Counted from the stretch's first letter, positions 3,871 through 32,228 are shown. The stretch is 32,256 nucleotides of DNA from Candidatus Woesearchaeota archaeon (GCA_018302885.1 JAGVZC010000005.1:1-32256), one strand, 5' to 3'. Numbers and translations: made by a program. The notes: generated by a model not told the origin, from the sequence alone.

Positions 3871-4980
3871 ATGGAATCTATGATACGCAGAGCAACTTCT
3901 AATCTTAGTTTCAAAAAAGAAGTTCAAAAGACTTCTGCTATTGATGAAGAGCTTGAACAATTGCTTTCTAAACAAAAAGCCAAAATAAAAGTTGTTGGAG
4001 CTGGCGGTGCTGGCAATAATACCATCAACAGAATGACTGAAATAGGAATTACTGGCGCTGAGACAATAGCAATCAACACAGATGCTCAGGATTTATTATA
4101 TACAAATGCTGATGTTAAAATTCTAATTGGGAAAGAAGTGACAGGTGGTTTAGGGGCCGGTTCTATTCCCAAAGTAGGTGAGGAGGCTGCAAGAGAATCT
4201 GAAACTGACATAAAAAAAGCAATAACTGGTGCTGATATGGTGTTTATTACATGCGGTCTTGGCGGAGGAACGGGTACTGGAAGCGCTCCAATTGTGGCAG
4301 AGATTGCAAAGAAGCAGAACTGCCTTACAGTTGGTGTTGTAACTATCCCCTTTTCCATGGAAGGCCAAAGAAGATATGAGAATGCAATAATCGGCCTTGA
4401 AAAATTAGAAAATATCGTTGATACTTTAATTGTAATTCCAAACGACAAGCTATTGGAGTTGGCTCCTGACTTGCCATTGCATACTGCATTCAAGATTGCA
4501 GATGAAATATTGACAAATGCTGTAAAAGGAATTGCTGAATTGGTTACAAAAGCTGGTTTGGTTAACCTTGACTTTGCAGATATCAAGACAGTAATGTCAA
4601 ATGGCGGAGTTGCAATGATCGGCGTTGGTGAATCAGACACAGCAAACAGGGCTGTTGAAGCTGTTGAAAAAGCAATAAACAATCCGATACTGGATGTTGA
4701 TATCTCCGGAGCAAATGGCGCATTAATAAATGTTGCCGGCGGTCCAGACATGACTTTGGATGAAGCAAGGAAAGTTGTTGAAACAATCTCAACAAAACTT
4801 GACGAGGATGCAAGGATAATCTGGGGAGCAAGCATAAGCGAGGATCTTGAAAATACAATAAGAACAATGCTGATAGTTACTGGTGTTAGTTCTCCGCAGA
4901 TATTTGGTCCAAGAAGATCTACTTCTACAAGAAGGAAGAAAGAAATTGAGAATGAATTAGGAATAGAGTTTGTTGATTAA
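3871..4980 (+). CDS. ftsZ: Cell division GTPase FtsZ
   Basis: Contains [13 protein letters not shown] and the tubulin signature [10 protein letters not shown], plus NTDAQ and a basic C-terminal tail. Confidence 0.95.
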
Positions 4981-5077
4981 AATACTTTTTGATTATGTTG
5001 AAGAAAGATTAAAACAAGCAGGAATAGTTGCCCAGAATTATGCAAGTTCAGAAGTTAGAATTGTTAATTTAATAACA

Positions 5078-5743: not shown

Positions 5744-6407
5744 AAAAGAAACAATTGAAATGCTTGTAGATGGCGGAAAAGCAAAAGCAGATGCTTCAGT
5801 TGCACAAAAATTAGGACCAATGAAAATTAATGTCCAGGAAGTTCTTAAGGTTGTCAATGAAAAGACAAGCTCATTTAATGGAATGAAGGTTCCTGTTAAA
5901 TTAATAGTTGATACTGAAACAAAAGAGTTTGAGATAAGCATTGGCACTCCTCCAATCTCTGAATTAATCAAAAAGGAATTAGAATTGCAAAAAGGAAGTT
6001 CATTTCCAAACAAAGACAAAGTAGCAAACATCGGGATTGAACAAGTCATTAAGATTGCAAAGATGAAAGAATCAAGCATTTTGCATAATTCCATGAAGTC
6101 TGTTGTTAAAACCGTCATAGGAAGCTGCAATGCCTTGGGAATTCTAGTTGAGGGTGAAGAAGCAAGAGACATCAATAAAGAAATAGACAACGGAAAATAT
6201 GACAAGGAAATTAAAGAAGAAAGAAAAGAAGTCAGTGAAGACAAAAAGAAAAGACTGCAAACAGAACTTGAACAATTCAGAAAGAAGTATGCTGGTGACA
6301 TTGAAATTTTGAAGGCTAAGGTAAAAGAAAAAGCCAAGGCTGCAACAGAAAGGAAAGAGAAGGAAGGCGGAGAGAAGAAGGAAGAGACTGCAGCCCAGAA
6401 AAAATAG
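5736..6407 (+). CDS. rpl11: Ribosomal protein uL11 with a K/E-rich C-terminal extension of about 60 aa
   Basis: Contains VDGGKAKADASVAQKLGPMKINV, VPVKLIVD and ISIGTPPISELIKKE, ending the normal fold near EIDNGKYD. It then continues with KEIKEERKEVSEDKKKRLQ...KEKEGGEKKEETAAQKK. Confidence 0.9.
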   Translation: MSKKETIEMLVDGGKAKADASVAQKLGPMKINVQEVLKVVNEKTSSFNGMKVPVKLIVDTETKEFEISIGTPPISELIKKELELQKGSSFPNKDKVANIGIEQVIKIAKMKESSILHNSMKSVVKTVIGSCNALGILVEGEEARDINKEIDNGKYDKEIKEERKEVSEDKKKRLQTELEQFRKKYAGDIEILKAKVKEKAKAATERKEKEGGEKKEETAAQKK

Positions 6408-6426
6408 GAAAATTTATTATTTTCTT

Positions 6427-7296
6427 TCAATAAATTCTACTCTTCATTCCATCCAATAAGTTAAATGTTTTCAAAAGAGAGACCCCCCTCCCTAAATTAT
6501 ATTTTCCATCAAAATTATGATAACTTTTATTTGCTAAATGATATAATTGTAATATTCCATTTGGGTTCATTTTAAATATTTTTAAGATCACTAGTTCTTC
6601 TTTTGTTATTTCCAAACCCCTTTGTATTCCATCAAAATCAAAGGTTTCATCCAATAAAACTTCATCTTTTTCTTGATACACAAAAGCAGGAAATTGTTCT
6701 TTCCTTTTATCTCTAGTTTCTAAACCAATTATAATGCTTACTGGGTTATATTTAGAGGTTCTTCTGTTGATATTAGTACTTTTTAGGTCTGACTTTGAAG
6801 GCCTGGTTCTTTCAATCTCAATATCCTCAAATCCATCTTCAATAAAGTTAAAAAGTGGGTGAGTATGAAACTCAAGTATCATTTGATGACTTGGATCACA
6901 AGATAGATTGTCTTTATCTTCATAATGTTTAAAATAATCCATTCTGGTTTTTAATCCTTTGGATATTGGGAAAGGCATGCTTGATGTTATATTTCTCTTT
7001 TTAAGTTCATAATGTAGTTTACCCAATTCAAGAACATTTAATTCTCTAAGTTCTCTCCCAAACCATTTTCTAGACATCTCTTTTTCTCTTGCATGCCCTA
7101 TTAGTTTATCTTTGCAACCTATAATAATATCATCAAAAAAAATACCAACTTCAGAATCATAGAACATATGAAATCCAGTTTCAAATCCGGTTTCTTGAGT
7201 TATTCTTATAGATTTATCTACTCCAGCTACGAATGCTTCATTATTTAATTCTGCCAAGTAATCTTCTATAGTTTTAAAATTTTTTTGTCTTTCCAT
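6427..7296 (-). CDS. Hypothetical protein, possibly a divergent JAB/MPN (JAMM) metalloprotease-like domain
   Basis: QETGFETGF (candidate Glu), EFHTHP (HxH) and PSKSD (SxxD) occur in JAMM order. The HxH-to-SxxD spacer is much longer than canonical, so the call is weak. Confidence 0.35.
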   Translation of the reverse strand: MERQKNFKTIEDYLAELNNEAFVAGVDKSIRITQETGFETGFHMFYDSEVGIFFDDIIIGCKDKLIGHAREKEMSRKWFGRELRELNVLELGKLHYELKKRNITSSMPFPISKGLKTRMDYFKHYEDKDNLSCDPSHQMILEFHTHPLFNFIEDGFEDIEIERTRPSKSDLKSTNINRRTSKYNPVSIIIGLETRDKRKEQFPAFVYQEKDEVLLDETFDFDGIQRGLEITKEELVILKIFKMNPNGILQLYHLANKSYHNFDGKYNLGRGVSLLKTFNLLDGMKSRIY

Positions 7297-19129: not shown

Positions 19130-19151
19130 TTCCATTTTACTATTTCTATAT

Positions 19152-19224
19152 GCCTCTGTAGCTCAGTTGGTAGAGCATCGCTTTCATGCGGCGAGGGTCG
19201 AGGGTTCGAATCCCTTCGGAGGCA
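19152..19224 (+). tRNA. tRNA with CAT anticodon (elongator Met, or Ile2 if C34 is modified)
   Basis: A 73-nt canonical cloverleaf: GCCTCTG / TA / GCTC-AGTTGGTA-GAGC / A / TCGCT-TTCATGC-GGCGA / GGGTC / GAGGG-TTCGAAT-CCCTT / CGGAGGC / A. The G1-C72 pair argues against an archaeal initiator. Confidence 0.9.
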
Positions 19225-19228
19225 TTAA

Positions 19229-26039: not shown

Positions 26040-27746
26040 ATGAAGAGGCTTGTCTTTTTGATTGTATTTTTATTAATGATAGGAAGTGTTAGTGCTGAAT
26101 TCAATCAGCAAAATGCAGTTAACTGGCTGAATTCAAACATTCAGTGGAGCAGGGCTACAATTGAAGAAATTGCGTTCTCTGCAATGGCTTTGGATTCTCA
26201 GGAAGGTGCAAACCAGTTGAAAGTCAATAAAATGGATGCTTCAGGATGTTTTCCAAAGAACAACTGCAATTCAAAGGATACTGCACTGGCAACATTAGCC
26301 CTTTCTTCAAACAGCGAATCAATTGCTGATCAATTAACATATCTGGAAGATAGTTTAACAAGTGCACCATTGGATGAATCAGAATGGAGAATTCAGGTTG
26401 TAACCAATACTGCAGGAACATGTACGGTTGGTTATGAGGGTGGGACATATTCATTGAATTTTGATGAGGAAGGAAAATTGGCTGATGGAAGTTCCTGGGT
26501 AAGCTTTAGTACCTTTCCTAATTTCAACTTTGATCGGGCTGTTGAAGAAATAAACGTGGATTGCAATGATCTTGATTATGTTCAGAAAATTTCAATAGTA
26601 AAAGTACAGGGGAATACTTTCTACATAATTGATGAAAGTGATTCAAAGAATGCATTATTTGAAATGGAAAATGGATGTTATGCTACAAATAAAGACAGCA
26701 ATACATGCGATGCTGATTCCTCATTCTATATTTCATGGGTGTTGAACAAATTAGGAAAAAGCATTACAACACAAAATTATCTTGAAGATGAGGCAAACAG
26801 CATTTTGTACAATGCAATGTTAACAGACATAGATAACTCAAAATCCTCAAGCTTGGTTGGAATGAAAAGCCAGGATAATTCTTTTGAAAATAAAATTTAC
26901 ACAACTTCCTTTGCAGTTAATGCACTGAAAAACAGCATTTACAGTACAGAAAGAGACAATTCAATAACATGGATTGAAAGCAAGCAAAATGAAAATACAG
27001 GAAAAATAGGAGATAATCTGATTGACACTGCAGCTGCATTATATTTGATTTATAGCGATGTTATTTATTCCGGAGGAGAAGATGAAGGAGAGCAAACAAC
27101 ATGCGTGACTGACTTTGACTGCGCTAACAATGAAGAATGCATAAACGGAATATGCCAGGCAATAGCACAGCAATGTACAAATGACGGAATATGCACTGAA
27201 TCTGAATATTCAACAGGAAATTGCGTTGATTGTTATGGCTGCGGCGACAAATACTGCAGTCCTCTTGAAAATGAATTCAGCTGCCCTTCTGACTGCGCTG
27301 AAGAAGAGATTATATGTAATGATGATGGCTTCTGTGATACCAGCGAGAGTGAATTTAACTGCCCAAATGACTGTCCAGCAACAAGCACAGGAGAGCAAGA
27401 AGAGGACAGATGCGGGAATGGCGTATGCGAATTAACATACGGCGAAGATGAGTTTACATGCTCCATTGATTGTGAACCAGAGAAAAAAGCAAGCTTGCTG
27501 TGGCTATGGTTAATTATAATAATTTTAATAATTGGCGGAGCAGCATTCTTTGTATTAACAAAAATGAAAAAAGGAAAAGGGGGGAATGAAAGACCTTCCT
27601 ACCTGCAAAATCAGAAAATTACCCCACAATATCCTTCAAGAAAAACAACCGTTGGTGACATAAAATCTTCAAGGGATCAAACAGTAGAGAGTGAACTTGA
27701 CAAGTCAATAAGCGAGGCAAGGGAATTGCTGAAAAGGAAGAAATAA
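26040..27746 (+). CDS. Type-I membrane surface protein: signal peptide, alpha/alpha-toroid (prenyltransferase/terpene-cyclase-like) repeat region, four Cys-rich modules, TM anchor, cytoplasmic tail
   Basis: The signal peptide is MKRLVFLIVFLLMIGSVSA. GCFPKNNCNSKDTALATLALSS is shared with the next gene. The Cys-rich repeats follow the pattern DG.C..SE.EF.CP.DC. The TM helix is LLWLWLIIIILIIGGAAFFVL. Confidence 0.7.
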   Translation: MKRLVFLIVFLLMIGSVSAEFNQQNAVNWLNSNIQWSRATIEEIAFSAMALDSQEGANQLKVNKMDASGCFPKNNCNSKDTALATLALSSNSESIADQLTYLEDSLTSAPLDESEWRIQVVTNTAGTCTVGYEGGTYSLNFDEEGKLADGSSWVSFSTFPNFNFDRAVEEINVDCNDLDYVQKISIVKVQGNTFYIIDESDSKNALFEMENGCYATNKDSNTCDADSSFYISWVLNKLGKSITTQNYLEDEANSILYNAMLTDIDNSKSSSLVGMKSQDNSFENKIYTTSFAVNALKNSIYSTERDNSITWIESKQNENTGKIGDNLIDTAAALYLIYSDVIYSGGEDEGEQTTCVTDFDCANNEECINGICQAIAQQCTNDGICTESEYSTGNCVDCYGCGDKYCSPLENEFSCPSDCAEEEIICNDDGFCDTSESEFNCPNDCPATSTGEQEEDRCGNGVCELTYGEDEFTCSIDCEPEKKASLLWLWLIIIILIIGGAAFFVLTKMKKGKGGNERPSYLQNQKITPQYPSRKTTVGDIKSSRDQTVESELDKSISEARELLKRKK

Positions 27747-27753
27747 AAACCCT

Positions 27754-27761
27754 TTTATATT
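27754..27761 (+). promoter_or_regulatory. TATA box TTTATATT, about 26 nt upstream of the second surface-protein gene
   Basis: Motif plus spacing to the ATG at 27781. Confidence 0.4.
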
Positions 27762-27780
27762 TCTGATAATTTAAGATTTC

Positions 27781-29853
27781 ATGAAGAGGTTATCATATTT
27801 GTTTATTTTTTTAATAGTTTGTTTCAGTGTCTATGCTGCTGATATAAATATTTTAACTTACAGAGATGATTATAATCCATTGGAAACATTTCAGGCAGAG
27901 GTAATTTTAGACAGTGAACCTGCAAGTGAATTAACTAATCTAAATTTTGAATTTTCAAAAGACAGTCAGATAGGAATTCTGTTATTTCTTGAAAAGATAA
28001 GCGACAAGCATTACTTTGTCTATTTTAACATTCCTGATGTCAATAAAGGTGAATACAAATTCAAAGTAAAAAATATAAATGTCATAGAGAATGGAATCCT
28101 GAAGAGAATTTCTGCAGAAAAAACAGTTAATGTTCTGGAAGCAAACAGCGGTTTTGAGTATTTATTAAATCATCAGAACATTGACGGAAGTTTTGGCAAT
28201 GTTATGGAAACCTCTTTGTCTTCATTGGCATTAAAAAACATCGATTATGAAAAAGCAATTCTCGGGGTGAATTATTTATTGAACAACCAAGATCCAACCG
28301 GATGCTATCCAAAAAATAACTGCAATGTCAGGGATACTTCCTTTGCATTACTGGCTTTAAGCAAATTCAACCAGAATTACATAAAAACAAAAAACTGGCT
28401 GAAAGATGCAGGCAATAATTTTGATTTGGGGTTGTGGAATTTAAAATTAGAAGGCAATGCTGTCTGCGGGAATATCCAGCTGAATGGAGTATATAATTTA
28501 AACATAGAAGATAAAGAGACAAATATAACCTGCAACAATGCTGTTGATTTTACACTAACCCATAATTATCTCGGAAATACCCACACAATACACCAATATA
28601 GCGGAAATAATTTTTATTATTCAATTGAGGATTCAGGATGTTATGGATCAACATACAAGAGCAGCTGTGATTACATAAACAGCTTATATGCAAGTTGGGC
28701 ATTAGACAGCATAAATGAAGATTTTCCTCAGCAATATCTGGAAAACAACAAACTTGACAATCGAACAATAGATCACTCCATTGGCTATATATTAAACAAT
28801 GATAATGAAGATAAAGACTGGCTGTTAAACAATTATCTCAATGGCTACTGGAGCTACAGCTCTGCTTCATTATCCCAAACACCTGATTATTTCGTCAGTG
28901 CATTATCAGCATATGCTTTAAGGAATGAATTTTTATTTGAAGAGGCAAAAAATTACCTTGAAAGCAGAACACAGACAAGCATATTGAACTCTGGTTTGAT
29001 ATTATATCTCCTGTTTGATGATGAAATGAATCTTCCTTCAGTATCAATAACCCCCGGAATCTCAAATAAACTAAGGTCATTTAATCTTAAAATAAAAAAC
29101 AACAAAGAACCATTAAATATTTTTATAGAAGCACCAAACTCAAGCAGACTGCCATCAGAGATATACCTGCAAAATGAAGCGAATTACAATGTCAATATAA
29201 TTGAAAGTTTTGATATACTCATCAATTATGGAAATTTCTCATATACAATACCTGTAATAGCACAAAATGAAGAAGCAAGCGAAAGTCCATTGCTGCCACC
29301 TCCAAAAGATGCAATACAATTTATCAATGAAGACGTTGAGATATACCTAAATATTGATGAAAGCCCAAGTGATGAACTGGAATTAATCAACATGTGGGAT
29401 TTCAAAATAAATGATATAACCATTAATGTCACAGGGAATTTAAGGGATATTCTTGAAATTGAGCAGGATTACTTTGATTCAATTGAAAGCGGGAAAACAT
29501 TAAGGACTTCAATCATATTAAACAAAGATAAAAAACCAGTTTATCCAATATATGAGGGATATGTAATCATAAAATCCTCAAAGAATATTTTTGATTCAAT
29601 AAAATTTTCAGTTAATTTCGAAGTGGGGGATTATAAGCAGGAAGAAAGCATTGATAATAATGAGGAAACTGTAACATCCGATGAAGAACAATCAACAACA
29701 AGTGAAAAAACAAGCTCTGAAAAGAAAAGAAATCTCTGGTGGTTATGGACAATAATTATATTAATCATTGGGGTATTAATATTCATATTTTTCAGAAAGA
29801 GAAAAGAAGTAACCCAAAGCTTTGATGATTATGCAAAAAAAATAAAAAAATGA
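27781..29853 (+). CDS. Type-I membrane surface protein, paralogue of the preceding gene (signal peptide, beta-rich N-domain, alpha/alpha-toroid-like repeats, TM anchor)
   Basis: The signal peptide is MKRLSYLFIFLIVCFSVYA. LLNHQNIDGSFG and LLNNQDPTGCYPKNNCNVRDTSFALLALSK are QW-like repeats. The TM helix is LWWLWTIIILIIGVLIFIFF. Confidence 0.7.
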   Translation: MKRLSYLFIFLIVCFSVYAADINILTYRDDYNPLETFQAEVILDSEPASELTNLNFEFSKDSQIGILLFLEKISDKHYFVYFNIPDVNKGEYKFKVKNINVIENGILKRISAEKTVNVLEANSGFEYLLNHQNIDGSFGNVMETSLSSLALKNIDYEKAILGVNYLLNNQDPTGCYPKNNCNVRDTSFALLALSKFNQNYIKTKNWLKDAGNNFDLGLWNLKLEGNAVCGNIQLNGVYNLNIEDKETNITCNNAVDFTLTHNYLGNTHTIHQYSGNNFYYSIEDSGCYGSTYKSSCDYINSLYASWALDSINEDFPQQYLENNKLDNRTIDHSIGYILNNDNEDKDWLLNNYLNGYWSYSSASLSQTPDYFVSALSAYALRNEFLFEEAKNYLESRTQTSILNSGLILYLLFDDEMNLPSVSITPGISNKLRSFNLKIKNNKEPLNIFIEAPNSSRLPSEIYLQNEANYNVNIIESFDILINYGNFSYTIPVIAQNEEASESPLLPPPKDAIQFINEDVEIYLNIDESPSDELELINMWDFKINDITINVTGNLRDILEIEQDYFDSIESGKTLRTSIILNKDKKPVYPIYEGYVIIKSSKNIFDSIKFSVNFEVGDYKQEESIDNNEETVTSDEEQSTTSEKTSSEKKRNLWWLWTIIILIIGVLIFIFFRKRKEVTQSFDDYAKKIKK

Positions 29854-30350
29854 TAAAAAAATTAATGATGGTTTTGCTTATGTTTTCCCTGATATTTCTA
29901 ATAATAGTTATATTCATTGATTCAAGCAACAATCCAGACTTGCAGAATCCGATAAATAAGGCAATTTACAAATTAATGACTGGCGAAAAATTAAGCCCGG
30001 CAGACCATATAAAAGAAGACCAGATAAGGATTGAAGATGATCAGGTGATAATAACCATAAGAAATGCAAAAATAGCAAGGTTTGCAGATACAAATTCAAT
30101 GGATCCTTTATTGGACGAGGAAAGCAACGCCATTCAGATAGTACCAAACTCACCTGACCAGATATATGTGGGTGATATAATAAGCTACACTTCAAAAAAT
30201 GGCGATATAATAATTCACAGGGTTGTCAAAATTGATGAGGACGAAGAAGGAATGTTTTATATAACTCAGGGTGATAACAATTCAAGCCCTGACAATGAAA
30301 AAATAAGGTTCTGGCAGGTTAGATTTATAACTGTCGGAATAATATACTAA
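29850..30350 (+). CDS. Signal peptidase I (S26 family, archaeal/ER-type)
   Basis: An N-terminal TM helix, then the boxes NSMDP (catalytic Ser), GDIISY, IIHRVV (His) and TQGDNNSSPD. It shares an ATGA overlap with the preceding surface-protein gene. Confidence 0.75.
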   Translation: MIKKLMMVLLMFSLIFLIIVIFIDSSNNPDLQNPINKAIYKLMTGEKLSPADHIKEDQIRIEDDQVIITIRNAKIARFADTNSMDPLLDEESNAIQIVPNSPDQIYVGDIISYTSKNGDIIIHRVVKIDEDEEGMFYITQGDNNSSPDNEKIRFWQVRFITVGIIY

Positions 30351-30353
30351 AAA

Positions 30354-30587
30354 ATGAAAATTTGGCACTGGGTTTTGATAATAATTGTAATATTGATACT
30401 AGCTGGAGCAATTCTATATAAAAATTACAGGGAAAATTTTGTTGTCGGTAATGAATTTGAGGAACTTGAAATAAGCAAATCTGATCTTAAAGAATGCTGC
30501 CAGTATTATGAAAATGGGGAATTAAAAACATGCAGCATACTAAAAAGATTTGATTGCAGCCTGTGTGAATCTAAGTGTTCTTCCTGA
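30354..30587 (+). CDS. Small membrane protein with a Cys-rich ectodomain (77 aa)
   Basis: An N-terminal TM helix (WHWVLIIIVILILAGAILY), then ECCQYYENGELKTCSILKRFDCSLCESKCSS. Confidence 0.45.
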   Translation: MKIWHWVLIIIVILILAGAILYKNYRENFVVGNEFEELEISKSDLKECCQYYENGELKTCSILKRFDCSLCESKCSS

Positions 30588-30939
30588 GAATAAGCTCTGC
30601 CTTTAGGTTTTTCACAGTCATATCATACATATGCAATTTTGCAAGCAAATCATTAAGCGTGTTTTCTATTTCTTCCCTTTTTACATTAATCTTATCATCC
30701 AACAATTCTATTGATGATGGAAAGTAATCAAGACAGAAACCAGTTAATTCTTGAAAAGTATTGAAATCAATCTCCATTTCAGTGAACGAAAAGAACAATT
30801 TTTCCTTTTGCTGTGCCTCAAATATATTGTATTTCAGAACTTTCTTTTCATTCTGAATTTTCTGAACCATCTCCTTTATCACATTCTCAACGTGCTCCTT
30901 TGGAGAACCTACAATTTCTATAATCAAATTTGCCCTCAT
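30571..30939 (-). CDS. Hypothetical protein (122 aa)
   Basis: Clean ORF with no recognised motif. It overlaps the preceding gene convergently by 17 nt. Confidence 0.45.
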   Translation of the reverse strand: MRANLIIEIVGSPKEHVENVIKEMVQKIQNEKKVLKYNIFEAQQKEKLFFSFTEMEIDFNTFQELTGFCLDYFPSSIELLDDKINVKREEIENTLNDLLAKLHMYDMTVKNLKAELILRKNT

Positions 30940-30961
30940 AATTATACCTTAGAATATATTT

Positions 30962-31522
30962 TTATAAGCTTTTCTTAAAAATCAAGTATATAATCAACAA
31001 CAATAAAACAGCACAAAAGAAATAAATTCCGAGATTTCTTGCCTTTACATCCGAAGACTGATAAATTACAGAGGAAGTAATCGGGCTTGTAAAAGATTCG
31101 CTTTCTGATTCCATAGAATTTGCGCTAAAGGATATCGGTGTTGTTTTTAATGAAGTTTCTTCCTTAATTTTTATTTCCTCGCATAAAGATTCTGTTATGC
31201 CCTCTATTTCTATCTCTTCTGCATCAATTTCATCCAATCCTTTCAGAATTATTTTATAAGTTCCATCAGGATATTTTTTATTGCAGTTTGGCTCTATCTG
31301 AAGAGGAACTATCATTGTGTAATTTATGAATTTATCCTCTATGTTTACCTCTGACCTTTTTGAAACCTGCTTGTTGCTTTCATCCACCAAATATAAATCC
31401 AGATTATATTTCTCTGTATCTCCCTTGTAAATTTTCATTTGGCGTAGGAATTGTCTGTATCCAGTAATCATTGACTTTTGACCATGATAAGCCTTCTTTC
31501 GTATGACTATAACTAATTTCAT
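30962..31522 (-). CDS. Beta-rich segment with a C-terminal TM anchor; probably the continuation of the LTD protein after a 1-nt frame change (otherwise starts at ATG 31438)
   Basis: It has no signal peptide of its own and ends in a TM helix, LGIYFFCAVLLLLIIYLIF. The first 28 codons of the listed ORF are simply the out-of-frame LTD gene. Confidence 0.5.
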   Translation of the reverse strand: MKLVIVIRKKAYHGQKSMITGYRQFLRQMKIYKGDTEKYNLDLYLVDESNKQVSKRSEVNIEDKFINYTMIVPLQIEPNCNKKYPDGTYKIILKGLDEIDAEEIEIEGITESLCEEIKIKEETSLKTTPISFSANSMESESESFTSPITSSVIYQSSDVKARNLGIYFFCAVLLLLIIYLIFKKSL

Positions 31523-32228
31523 CTAATAAAATGTTTTTATAAAACAACCTAACTTTATCAAATCCCTCATTATTTAACTCTAATCTCCCATCTTGATTTC
31601 TATAAATCACCAGATAATCATGAGGCTCAATTATGGTTGTATTTTGTAGTATGTTTACATCCGAAATATTTATTCCATTCCCATAGTCATCATTTATTAT
31701 CAATTTTTCGATGTCTAGATATTCATCTCCAGAATTATAAAGTTCGATCCACTCTCCCTCAGGCATAGGAGCATCGTGTTTTGTTGGATGTGGAAAGAAT
31801 TCTGTAATTTCTAATGTGGTGTAATCTTGACCTAATGGTTCTGGTAAAACAAATATTAATTTTTCATTAAAATTATTTATTGAATTAGTATCATTACAAT
31901 TTATTTCTGACAAATTAAAATAAATTATATATGGGCTTCCTGCTGGAACTCTTGGTTCACGTTTAGGATTTCTTTCATTAGCAACGCCATTTAAACTAAT
32001 TCTATAATTTTCTATCACATTTCCAAATAAATCAGTTATTTTTCCCTCAAGGATTATATCTGAAGTTGGTCCATTGTTCTTAAAAACATTTATTGTAAAA
32101 TTTGCATTCTCATTATATTCAAAAACATATTTGTTTGGAATTATTTCAATTCCAAAGTCACATTCTTCTGCATAAACAGAAAAAGATGATAATATCAAGA
32201 AAAACAGCAATATTATACTAAATCTCAT
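31404..32228 (-). CDS. Secreted lamin-tail-domain (LTD) protein
   Basis: The signal peptide is MRFSIILLFFLILSSFSVYA. An Ig-like N-domain is followed by the LTD blocks ITEFFPHP...GEWIELYNSGDEYLDI...LELNNEGFDKVRLFY...LSWSKVNDYWIQTIPTPNEN. Confidence 0.75.
   Translation of the reverse strand: MRFSIILLFFLILSSFSVYAEECDFGIEIIPNKYVFEYNENANFTINVFKNNGPTSDIILEGKITDLFGNVIENYRISLNGVANERNPKREPRVPAGSPYIIYFNLSEINCNDTNSINNFNEKLIFVLPEPLGQDYTTLEITEFFPHPTKHDAPMPEGEWIELYNSGDEYLDIEKLIINDDYGNGINISDVNILQNTTIIEPHDYLVIYRNQDGRLELNNEGFDKVRLFYKNILLDEISYSHTKEGLSWSKVNDYWIQTIPTPNENLQGRYREI

Follow-up and report, generated by a model that had tools for sequence, protein, structure and literature searches.

The locus and its genes

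We analysed a stretch of 32,256 nucleotides from a Candidatus Woesearchaeota archaeon (GCA_018302885.1 JAGVZC010000005.1:1-32256), referred to below in its whole length as the window, in which positions 26,040 to 32,228 hold the genes for two large membrane proteins, here named P1 and P2. With them lie a signal peptidase I (SPase), a Cys-rich mini-protein and, on the opposite strand, an MJ0538-family protein and a membrane protein with a lamin-tail domain (LTD; Table 1). Woesearchaeota and Pacearchaeota, abundant archaea which have small genomes and are uncultivated, are thought to depend on partner organisms; to our knowledge, almost nothing is known of their surface proteins. An earlier note, made from this sequence alone, had read the locus as a co-processed cell-surface module of paralogous toroid proteins with a dedicated signal peptidase. 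The open reading frames (ORFs) which it gave for P1, P2, the SPase, the mini-protein and the minus-strand LTD gene were all recovered, and most of what it said of P1 and P2 stood; the dedicated peptidase, the most unusual-sounding part, is probably ordinary.

Table 1. Genes and predicted protein features at the locus, in nucleotide positions of the window (aa, residues of the protein concerned; AF2, AlphaFold2; HMM, hidden Markov model; MG, macroglobulin).
Feature	Position	Strand	Basis
ArkI-like small protein kinase-fold gene, 181 aa	25446..25991	-	Profile match to PDB 8yv4, TkArkI
P1, 568 aa	26040..27746	+	ORF, AF2 model
P1 signal peptide, aa 1-19			
P1 (alpha/alpha)6 toroid, aa 22-342	26103..27065	+	AF2 model, Foldseek
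P1 Cys-loop motif GCFPKNNCNSKDTALA (C70...C76)	26244..26291	+	C, P, C, T invariant in 22 toroids
P1 beta-sandwich insert, aa 105-216	26352..26687	+	AF2 model
P1 Cys-rich stalk, aa 343-480 (20 Cys)			
P1 transmembrane helix, aa 486-509, then 59-aa cytoplasmic tail			
P1 conserved C-terminal cytoplasmic helix ESELDKSISEARELLKRKK, aa 546-568	27675..27743	+	Conservation; AF2 helix aa 544-567
P2, 690 aa	27781..29853	+	ORF, AF2 model, per-member Pfam matches
P2 signal peptide			
P2 N-terminal MG-like beta-sandwich, aa 20-118			
P2 toroid module with beta insert, aa 119-415	28135..29025	+	HMM cross-matches to P1
P2 Cys-loop motif GCYPKNNCNVRDTSFA (C175...C181)	28300..28347	+	Toroid alignment
P2 beta-sandwich insert, aa 213-285	28417..28635	+	AF2 model
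P2 two beta-sandwiches, aa 416-615, then disordered acidic linker			
P2 transmembrane helix, aa 651-672			
P2 short tail, aa 673-690 (SFDDYAKKIKK)			
Sec11/archaeal-type signal peptidase I (S26B), 166 aa, N-terminal transmembrane anchor	29850..30350	+	TIGR02228, SEC11A alignment
Mini-protein, 77 aa, single-pass membrane, six conserved extracytoplasmic Cys	30354..30587	+	
MJ0538-family cytoplasmic protein, convergent with the operon and overlapping its 3' end	30571..30939	-	PF27325 on orthologues
LTD membrane-protein gene, disrupted	30962..32228	-	PF00932; intact in L003, L004

Two paralogous membrane proteins

P1 and P2 align at 28% identity over 228 residues (BLASTP, E=1e-15), and the HMMs of the two families match one another at 1e-26 to 1e-53, which places the proposed paralogy far above chance. 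Matches of P1 toroids span positions 125-420 of the P2 model, and the transmembrane anchors are alike as well (HMM cross-match 6e-5). The block common to both proteins, GC(F/Y)PKNNCN.(K/R)DT, on which the earlier note had remarked, is indeed their most conserved part, with its C, P, C and T invariant in both families. The paralogy takes in the toroid module and the anchor only; the remaining regions differ.

The type-I membrane topology claimed for both proteins held. Each begins with a signal peptide ending in V-x-A, with an Ala at position -1 whose conservation reaches 90% or more in either family, and each closes with a transmembrane helix followed by basic residues; a location at the cell surface is likewise supported. 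Sorting signals of the sortase or archaeosortase type (PGF-CTERM, LPXTG) were considered for the C-termini and rejected, as all matches were sub-threshold (LPXTG_anchor, 11.9 bits against a cut-off of 15.9; FILTED, 18.3 against 40). The sequence beyond the transmembrane helix is moreover conserved over 18 residues in P2 and 59 in P1, as opposed to the short basic end of such signals.

The terminal helix of P1, of the pattern E.ELDKSI.EA..LLKK, is the most conserved segment of its family: the majority-residue fraction is 0.71 here and 0.41-0.60 in other parts. The P2 family has a tail motif of its own, SF(D/E)(D/E)Y.KKIK, in the region of residues 673-690, and the transmembrane segments are conserved too (0.60-0.61). 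Conservation of both the membrane helices and the cytoplasmic tails suggests that an intracellular partner may hold P1 and P2 or be signalled to by them, the terminal helix of P1 being the clearest case. This helix bears a partial likeness only to the MIM1 motif of ESCRT proteins. We also noted that N-x-S/T sequons are absent from the 466 ectodomain residues of P1, which are rich in Asn, Ser and Thr, and number five in P2.

The toroid fold

The AF2 model of P2, built on 25 homologues, has a predicted local distance difference test score (pLDDT) of 85.7 and a predicted template-modelling score of 0.72. It runs from a beta-sandwich (residues 22-118) through five helices (123-210), a beta-sandwich insert (218-281) and seven further helices (298-411) to two beta-sandwiches (421-613), the disordered acidic linker and the transmembrane helix. 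P1 is modelled at a pLDDT of about 90 over residues 20-340, its Cys-rich stalk poorly, and its toroid has the same layout, with the insert between helices 5 and 6. Twelve helices around a beta insert in both models bear out the alpha/alpha-toroid call made earlier.

A toroid-only alignment of 22 toroids from both families has ten invariant positions, C57, P59, C63, T68, W101, C111, C133, C169, C178 and L190, so that invariant residues are limited to Cys, Pro, Thr, Trp and Leu. The six cysteines make three Cys pairs, and with them comes the loop GC(Y/F/W)P...C.(K/R)DT. It is probable, on this pattern, that three disulfides staple the toroid (in P1 the predicted bonds are C70-C76, C128-C175 and C213-C223), and the loop is likely to be its functional site.

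Relatives of known structure were not readily found. Direct Pfam and NCBIfam scans of the P1 and P2 sequences gave nothing useful, single-sequence phmmer searches of the PDB gave nothing, and the profile of full-length P2 matched only a de novo design there (E=0.056). In the PDB the superfamily relation surfaced only with a toroid-only profile. Its best match, to squalene-hopene cyclase (E=3e-8), runs across several QW repeats; further matches are to Anopheles TEP1 (2.4e-4), class II cyclases (about 1e-3) and, weakly, C4, cobra venom factor and C3d. The QW-like repeats discerned by eye in the earlier note are thus real. Per-member Pfam searches agree: TED_complement (PF07678) was matched in nine of 25 P2-family members (best 1.6e-5), MG2 weakly in three of 25, and the N and C domains of squalene-hopene cyclase in individual members. 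Precomputed Pfam and NCBI names on the homologues P0038, P0063 and P0064 concur, and one relative is named 'prenyltransferase/squalene oxidase repeat-containing protein' by NCBI.

Foldseek searches point the same way. For full-length P2 the results were dominated by arrays of immunoglobulin-like (Ig-like) domains, such as ciliary proteins and transglutaminases, so template-modelling scores (TM-scores) were read in place of E-value rank; the top ones were to ECAM, CD109, A2ML1 and alpha-2-macroglobulin (A2M). The P1 toroid matched with high probability, at non-significant E-values, the class II diterpene cyclase Rv3377c (6vpt), transcobalamin, a drimenyl-PP synthase and C4Adg. Taken with the profile and Pfam matches, these results uphold the suggested kinship to prenyltransferases, terpene cyclases and thioester domains (TEDs). 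On the models, the 12-helix (alpha/alpha)6 toroid and its membership of the terpene-cyclase/prenyltransferase/A2M-TED superfamily are established, the subfamily not. The P1/P2 family is a previously unstudied variant within this known superfamily; literature searches on Woesearchaeota with macroglobulins or squalene-hopene cyclase, on DPANN surface proteins and on DPANN lamin-tail proteins returned nothing on it.

Family, history and gene neighbourhood

An exhaustive search with the toroid profile found 2448 representatives (50%-identity clusters) at E<=1e-3, 901 at 1e-10 and 405 at 1e-30. The majority have the architecture of P1, with a toroid from about residue 25, and a minority that of P2, with a toroid from about residue 125. 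The named members are all 'hypothetical protein' from DPANN archaea (Woesearchaeota, Pacearchaeota or Nanoarchaeota).

A history of domain duplication is visible in this family. In a neighbour-joining tree the toroids of P1 are set apart from those of P2, and eight genome loci (L015-L022) encode a P2 of about 395 residues with no toroid, for example L017:11710-12891 of archaeon GW2011_AR20. This short P2 matches only positions 1-122 and 423-697 of the P2 profile, its N-terminal beta-sandwich being joined straight to the two C-terminal ones, and P1 there keeps its toroid. The pattern fits one old duplication of a P1-type module which would have given rise to the P2 toroid, by insertion, or with loss in the AR20 group.

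Related loci were sought with an alignment of 16 closer sequences, and their neighbourhoods were examined for 10 kb on either side of the matches. In the resulting set of 19 independent loci, annotated with HMMs built for this analysis, the conserved core order is an ArkI-like kinase (-), P1 and P2 (+), an MJ0538-like gene (-) and the LTD membrane protein (-). P1 lies immediately upstream of P2 in 16 of the 19, the MJ0538-family gene is convergent downstream of P2 in all 18 informative loci, and the kinase gene adjoins P1 in 14. A secreted GH16 glycoside hydrolase gene stands between P1 and P2 at L002:8956-9960. Of 17 informative loci, 14 include an LTD-family gene in the cluster, in keeping with the tie between toroid genes and LTD protein seen in the window. 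Within the window, TATA-like boxes about 25 nt before the start codons of both P1 and P2, and the lack of promoter room ahead of the SPase or mini-protein, suggest two transcripts, one of P1 and one of P2, SPase and mini-protein.

Other neighbours are of a housekeeping kind. The kinase family matches the 'putative Ser/Thr protein kinase' of PDB 8yv4 at 5e-26 and, more distantly, TkArkI (7vnx) at 5e-6. ArkI is a tRNA 2'-kinase (PMC9095486), and the gene probably has a housekeeping role outside the surface function; as a small kinase of the ArkI type, it was set aside as a signalling partner. Invariant K, E, H..KH and DFER are kept in this family, and the usual Asp of the HxD catalytic loop is not evident. 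The MJ0538-like profile found no relative in the PDB. TFB and Hjc genes also occur near P1/P2 loci; one TFB homologue, at L009:5416-7875(-), is an ORF of 819 residues against about 310 elsewhere and may hold an intein or a gene fusion.

A proposed surface binding role

Catalytic motifs known from this superfamily are missing from the P1/P2 toroids. The thioester motif CxEQ (searched as C.EQ) occurs in none of the toroids of the 48 family members surveyed, 25 of P2 and 23 of P1, which extends to the families its reported absence from the window; the only CPEQ belongs to a Cys-rich stalk. Positions aligned with the general acid DxDD(T/S)A of cyclases read x(K/R)DT(A/S) or DxYxTS, with no conserved acidic triad. 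Absence of both motifs in an extracellular, disulfide-rich setting argues for a binding module in place of a protease trap or a cyclase, and the toroid is probably a non-catalytic, ligand-binding head.

We therefore favour, with moderate confidence, the reading that P1 and P2 are a vertically inherited surface pair with non-catalytic toroid heads, accompanied by an LTD partner and by an SPase that is not dedicated to them. P1, P2 and the LTD protein would be exported by the Sec pathway and anchored by their C-terminal transmembrane helices, their signal peptides being cleaved by the Sec11-type SPase as those of any Sec substrate would be. The P1 head would be raised on its Cys-rich stalk and that of P2 framed by Ig-like or MG-like domains, so placed that the stapled heads could present their invariant Cys loop to a ligand. 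The conserved cytoplasmic tails may couple both proteins to an intracellular partner, and the SPase and mini-protein would form a cassette at the 3' end of the P2 transcript in the lineage of the window. A role of P1 and P2 in surface binding or adhesion is what we infer from these features.

Several observations weigh against this reading. The global TM-scores of P2 to A2M proteins are low (0.21-0.26), and the Foldseek E-values of the isolated P1 toroid are non-significant (best 0.056), so that the choice between TED, cyclase and transcobalamin-like subfamilies is not settled. With housekeeping neighbours such as TFB, the ArkI-like kinase, MJ0538 and Hjc, part of the synteny may stem from a backbone that rearranges slowly and not from function. 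Finally, the SPase overlaps P2 by ATGA in three of the five lineages in which it is adjacent, which fits deliberate co-expression.

P1, P2 and the LTD protein might instead be structural parts of the envelope, S-layer-like or stalk-forming, and not ligand-binding adhesins or receptors. Their near-universal, syntenic occurrence across Woesearchaeales amid core genes speaks for such a function, as do C-terminal anchors with conserved tails, arrays of Ig-like domains and the size of a vertically inherited family. We nonetheless hold it to be unlikely: the most conserved element of the ectodomain is a small surface loop of the toroid, a pattern that one would sooner expect of a binding site than of a lattice contact, and no lattice-forming domain was recognised.

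The P1/P2 family, large, syntenic and known only as hypothetical proteins, with a toroid bearing neither thioester nor cyclase motif, offers a tangible candidate for the recognition of a host or substrate, and in it a fold of eukaryotic and bacterial immune proteins and enzymes is redeployed as an archaeal surface module. A more specific version, to which we give only a small chance, is that the heads capture a host-derived molecule and that P1 and P2 act as a transmembrane relay, their unusually conserved membrane helices and tails coupling the binding of ligand or host outside to a cytoplasmic partner, possibly the invariably adjacent MJ0538-family protein. Isoprenoid lipids are candidates as the ancestral ligands of the fold, and a corrinoid by analogy with transcobalamin. 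Were this true, the pair would be a device for host sensing or for scavenging, common to the lineage of Woesearchaeota and Pacearchaeota and supplying what these reduced archaea cannot make.

The signal peptidase and the mini-protein

The SPase scores 55.1 bits against the NCBIfam equivalog TIGR02228 (archaeal signal peptidase I), above the cut-off of 51.85, and 39.5 bits against the SipW model, for which the cut-off is 190; a Pfam scan gave no match. Its profile matches human SEC11A at 8e-8 with the SMDP, HRV and GDNN..D segments aligned. All catalytic boxes are thus present, as reported earlier; they read SM.P, HR. and GDN..D, and 20 orthologues all keep S83, H123, D142 and D148. Alignment of Ser, His and Asp with SEC11A indicates the Ser-His-Asp type of the endoplasmic reticulum (ER) and archaea, not the bacterial Ser-Lys type. 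In the orthologues at L010:12130-12633 and L011:6996-7499, SMDP around the catalytic Ser is replaced by SQEP or SEEP, and TNS by THS; Ser, His and Asp are kept. The overlap of the P2 stop with the SPase start, in ATGA, was also as described; sibling contigs are sometimes called from a downstream ATG, and the MIKK N-terminus conserved in orthologues favours the overlapping upstream start.

The mini-protein follows the SPase as a 77-residue membrane protein, as had been noted, with six cysteines and not seven, all conserved in six lineages. It does so in all five lineages in which the SPase adjoins P2, as well as in L025, where the SPase sits elsewhere. The stable unit is accordingly a two-gene cassette of SPase and mini-protein which moves relative to P1 and P2. 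At L025:4562-5042(-) and 6001-6709(+) this cassette, away from any P1 or P2 gene, has for company a further mini-protein gene in inverted orientation and a 56-residue SPase-like fragment, which suggest its duplication or decay.

SipW of Bacillus subtilis, encoded in the tapA-sipW-tasA operon, serves as the reference case for an ER-type signal peptidase dedicated to its substrates. SipW, SEC11 and archaeal signal peptidase I are, like the SPase, S26 enzymes of the Ser-His-Asp type, and the SPase, like SipW, stands inside an operon for secreted surface proteins. It could be imagined, as the earlier note proposed, that an extra peptidase is reserved for maturing P1, P2 and the LTD protein, which would form a co-processed module. 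In L002 and L010, as in the window, the start of the SPase overlaps the stop of P2; the SPase family conserves an unusual stretch of about 55 extra residues between the transmembrane helix and the catalytic Ser; and the SPase is always found with the Cys-rich mini-protein, in a cassette duplicated in one genome (L025). As a small membrane partner, the mini-protein recalls, if loosely, the accessory subunits found in the signal peptidase complex of eukaryotes.

The linkage to the surface genes is, unlike that of SipW, patchy. The cassette adjoins P2 in only five of 18 informative loci (the clade of the window, L002, L009, L010 and L011); it is not beside P2 in L008, L012, L014-L022 or L001, nor even in L007, where P2 is 65% identical. 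The same orthologous family is widespread in unrelated contexts: where orthologues of 43-56% identity stand on long contigs, their neighbours are adenylate kinase, proteasome/CPSF genes or ABC transporters, and neither P1 nor P2 occurs closer than 6 kb. Tables of matches suggest further co-location with P2 among SPase relatives of 57-70% identity. The enzyme passes the general archaeal equivalog model, and no second SPase was found in the window or in any neighbourhood examined. Conserved linkage in relatives, which the earlier note had named as one half of what would tell against its proposal if lacking, was thus looked for and not found. We consider a dedicated peptidase improbable and an ordinary housekeeping enzyme more likely, and the claim of a co-processed module is not supported.

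Comparison with known toroid proteins

A2M, C3, C4, TEP1 and bacterial ECAM share with P1 and P2 an extracytoplasmic, non-enzymatic 12-helix toroid, the TED (PF07678), amid MG-like beta-sandwiches, and the likeness, in sequence and structure, consists of weak yet repeated matches. P1 and P2 differ from these proteins in having no CGEQ thioester, bait region, CUB domain or receptor-binding domain. In place of the seven to eight MG domains of A2M proteins, P2 has three beta-sandwiches, one N-terminal and two C-terminal, and P1 none. Their toroid carries an inserted beta-sandwich, atypical of TEDs, and three conserved Cys pairs, and they are anchored by a C-terminal transmembrane helix with a cytoplasmic tail.

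Class II cyclases such as squalene-hopene cyclase (PF13243/PF13249) share the QW-like repeats (W/Y-L-x3-Q-x2-5-G-S-W/F) and give the best sequence match; Rv3377c and drimenyl-PP synthase give the best Foldseek probability with the P1 toroid. The cyclases have a beta-gamma didomain and the DxDD motif, whereas the AF2 models of P1 and P2 each contain a single 12-helix toroid with x(K/R)DT in the place of DxDD, in proteins that are secreted and probably disulfide-bonded, hence probably non-catalytic. Since the features that define A2M proteins (thioester, MG array, bait region) and those that define cyclases (DxDD, didomain) both failed, we place the family in neither.

Two further explanations may accordingly be dismissed as very improbable. 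One would make P2 a miniature A2M/TEP-like protease trap or opsonin on the archaeal surface, as its MG-like beta-sandwich before a TED-like toroid, the TED_complement and MG2 matches in family members, the top TM-scores to ECAM, CD109, A2ML1 and A2M and the toroid match to TEP1 might invite; it has against it the missing thioester, bait region, CUB and receptor-binding domains, the few beta-sandwiches, TMq values of at most 0.26 and an insert unseen in TEDs. The other, an active extracellular enzyme (class II terpene cyclase or prenyltransferase, or six-hairpin glycosidase), draws on the resemblance of its QW repeats to those of squalene-hopene cyclase and drimenyl-PP synthases and on the NCBI name of one relative, and has to contend with the altered DxDD motif, invariant residues of five kinds only, a single toroid without the didomain, and a probably disulfide-bonded domain outside the cell, where no supply of prenyl diphosphates is plausible.

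The alpha-domain of transcobalamin and intrinsic factor offers an analogy for non-catalytic heads: it too is an extracellular alpha6/alpha6 barrel with a beta domain, and is purely ligand-binding. Transcobalamin matches the P1 toroid with a Foldseek probability of 0.8-0.9 (TMt 0.37), with no sequence similarity. Its beta domain follows the barrel, whereas that of P1 and P2 lies within it, and no cobalamin transporter gene is found near P1/P2.

The LTD gene

The LTD protein consists of a signal peptide, a beta-sandwich, the lamin-tail domain, a second beta-sandwich and a transmembrane helix. PF00932 is matched in the ORF of the window at 9e-11 (42.5 bits against a gathering threshold of 34.3) and in orthologues at 41-120 bits. 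The earlier description of a secreted LTD protein on the opposite strand was thus correct as to the domain, signal peptide and anchor; the gene is not intact here. It is split into two overlapping minus-strand ORFs (31404-32228 and 30962-31522) through the frameshift caused by a 110-bp deletion: the missing segment is present in the 99.9%-identical L003 and L004, which hold an intact gene for a protein of 458 aa. The junction, at about 31434, is flanked by a short GAAA microhomology, and the deletion may be either a variant in the population or an artefact of assembly.

Other prokaryotic LTD (PF00932) surface proteins likewise have a secreted LTD, flanking beta-sandwiches and a C-terminal anchor; the present one differs in being a member of a conserved cluster with toroid proteins, and in the frameshift of the window copy. 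At L021:11588-13795(-), a staphylococcal nuclease domain (PF00565, 1.9e-21) follows the LTD, as in bacterial LTD-nuclease proteins, a fusion which hints that some LTD proteins of the cluster may bind or cut extracellular nucleic acid. The sole LTD paper found concerns bacteria of the candidate phyla radiation and was set aside as not relevant to the DPANN protein.

Sequence context

The window has a GC content of about 32% and encodes TFIIB and an RNase Z-like protein just upstream of the P1/P2 locus, which mark it as archaeal. Named homologues come from metagenome-assembled genomes of Candidatus Woesearchaeota, Pacearchaeota, Nanoarchaeota or 'archaeon', with the complete genome GW2011_AR20 among them, and the rest from metagenomes; the origin of the window is a Woesearchaeota-type DPANN archaeon. 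Sibling contigs at 99.9% identity are present in several samples. A single tRNA-Met(CAT) gene was detected in the window by ARAGORN, at 19151-19225, and the 1-kb bin 4001-5000, which covers the ORF at 3871-4980, has a GC content of 40% against about 31% elsewhere.

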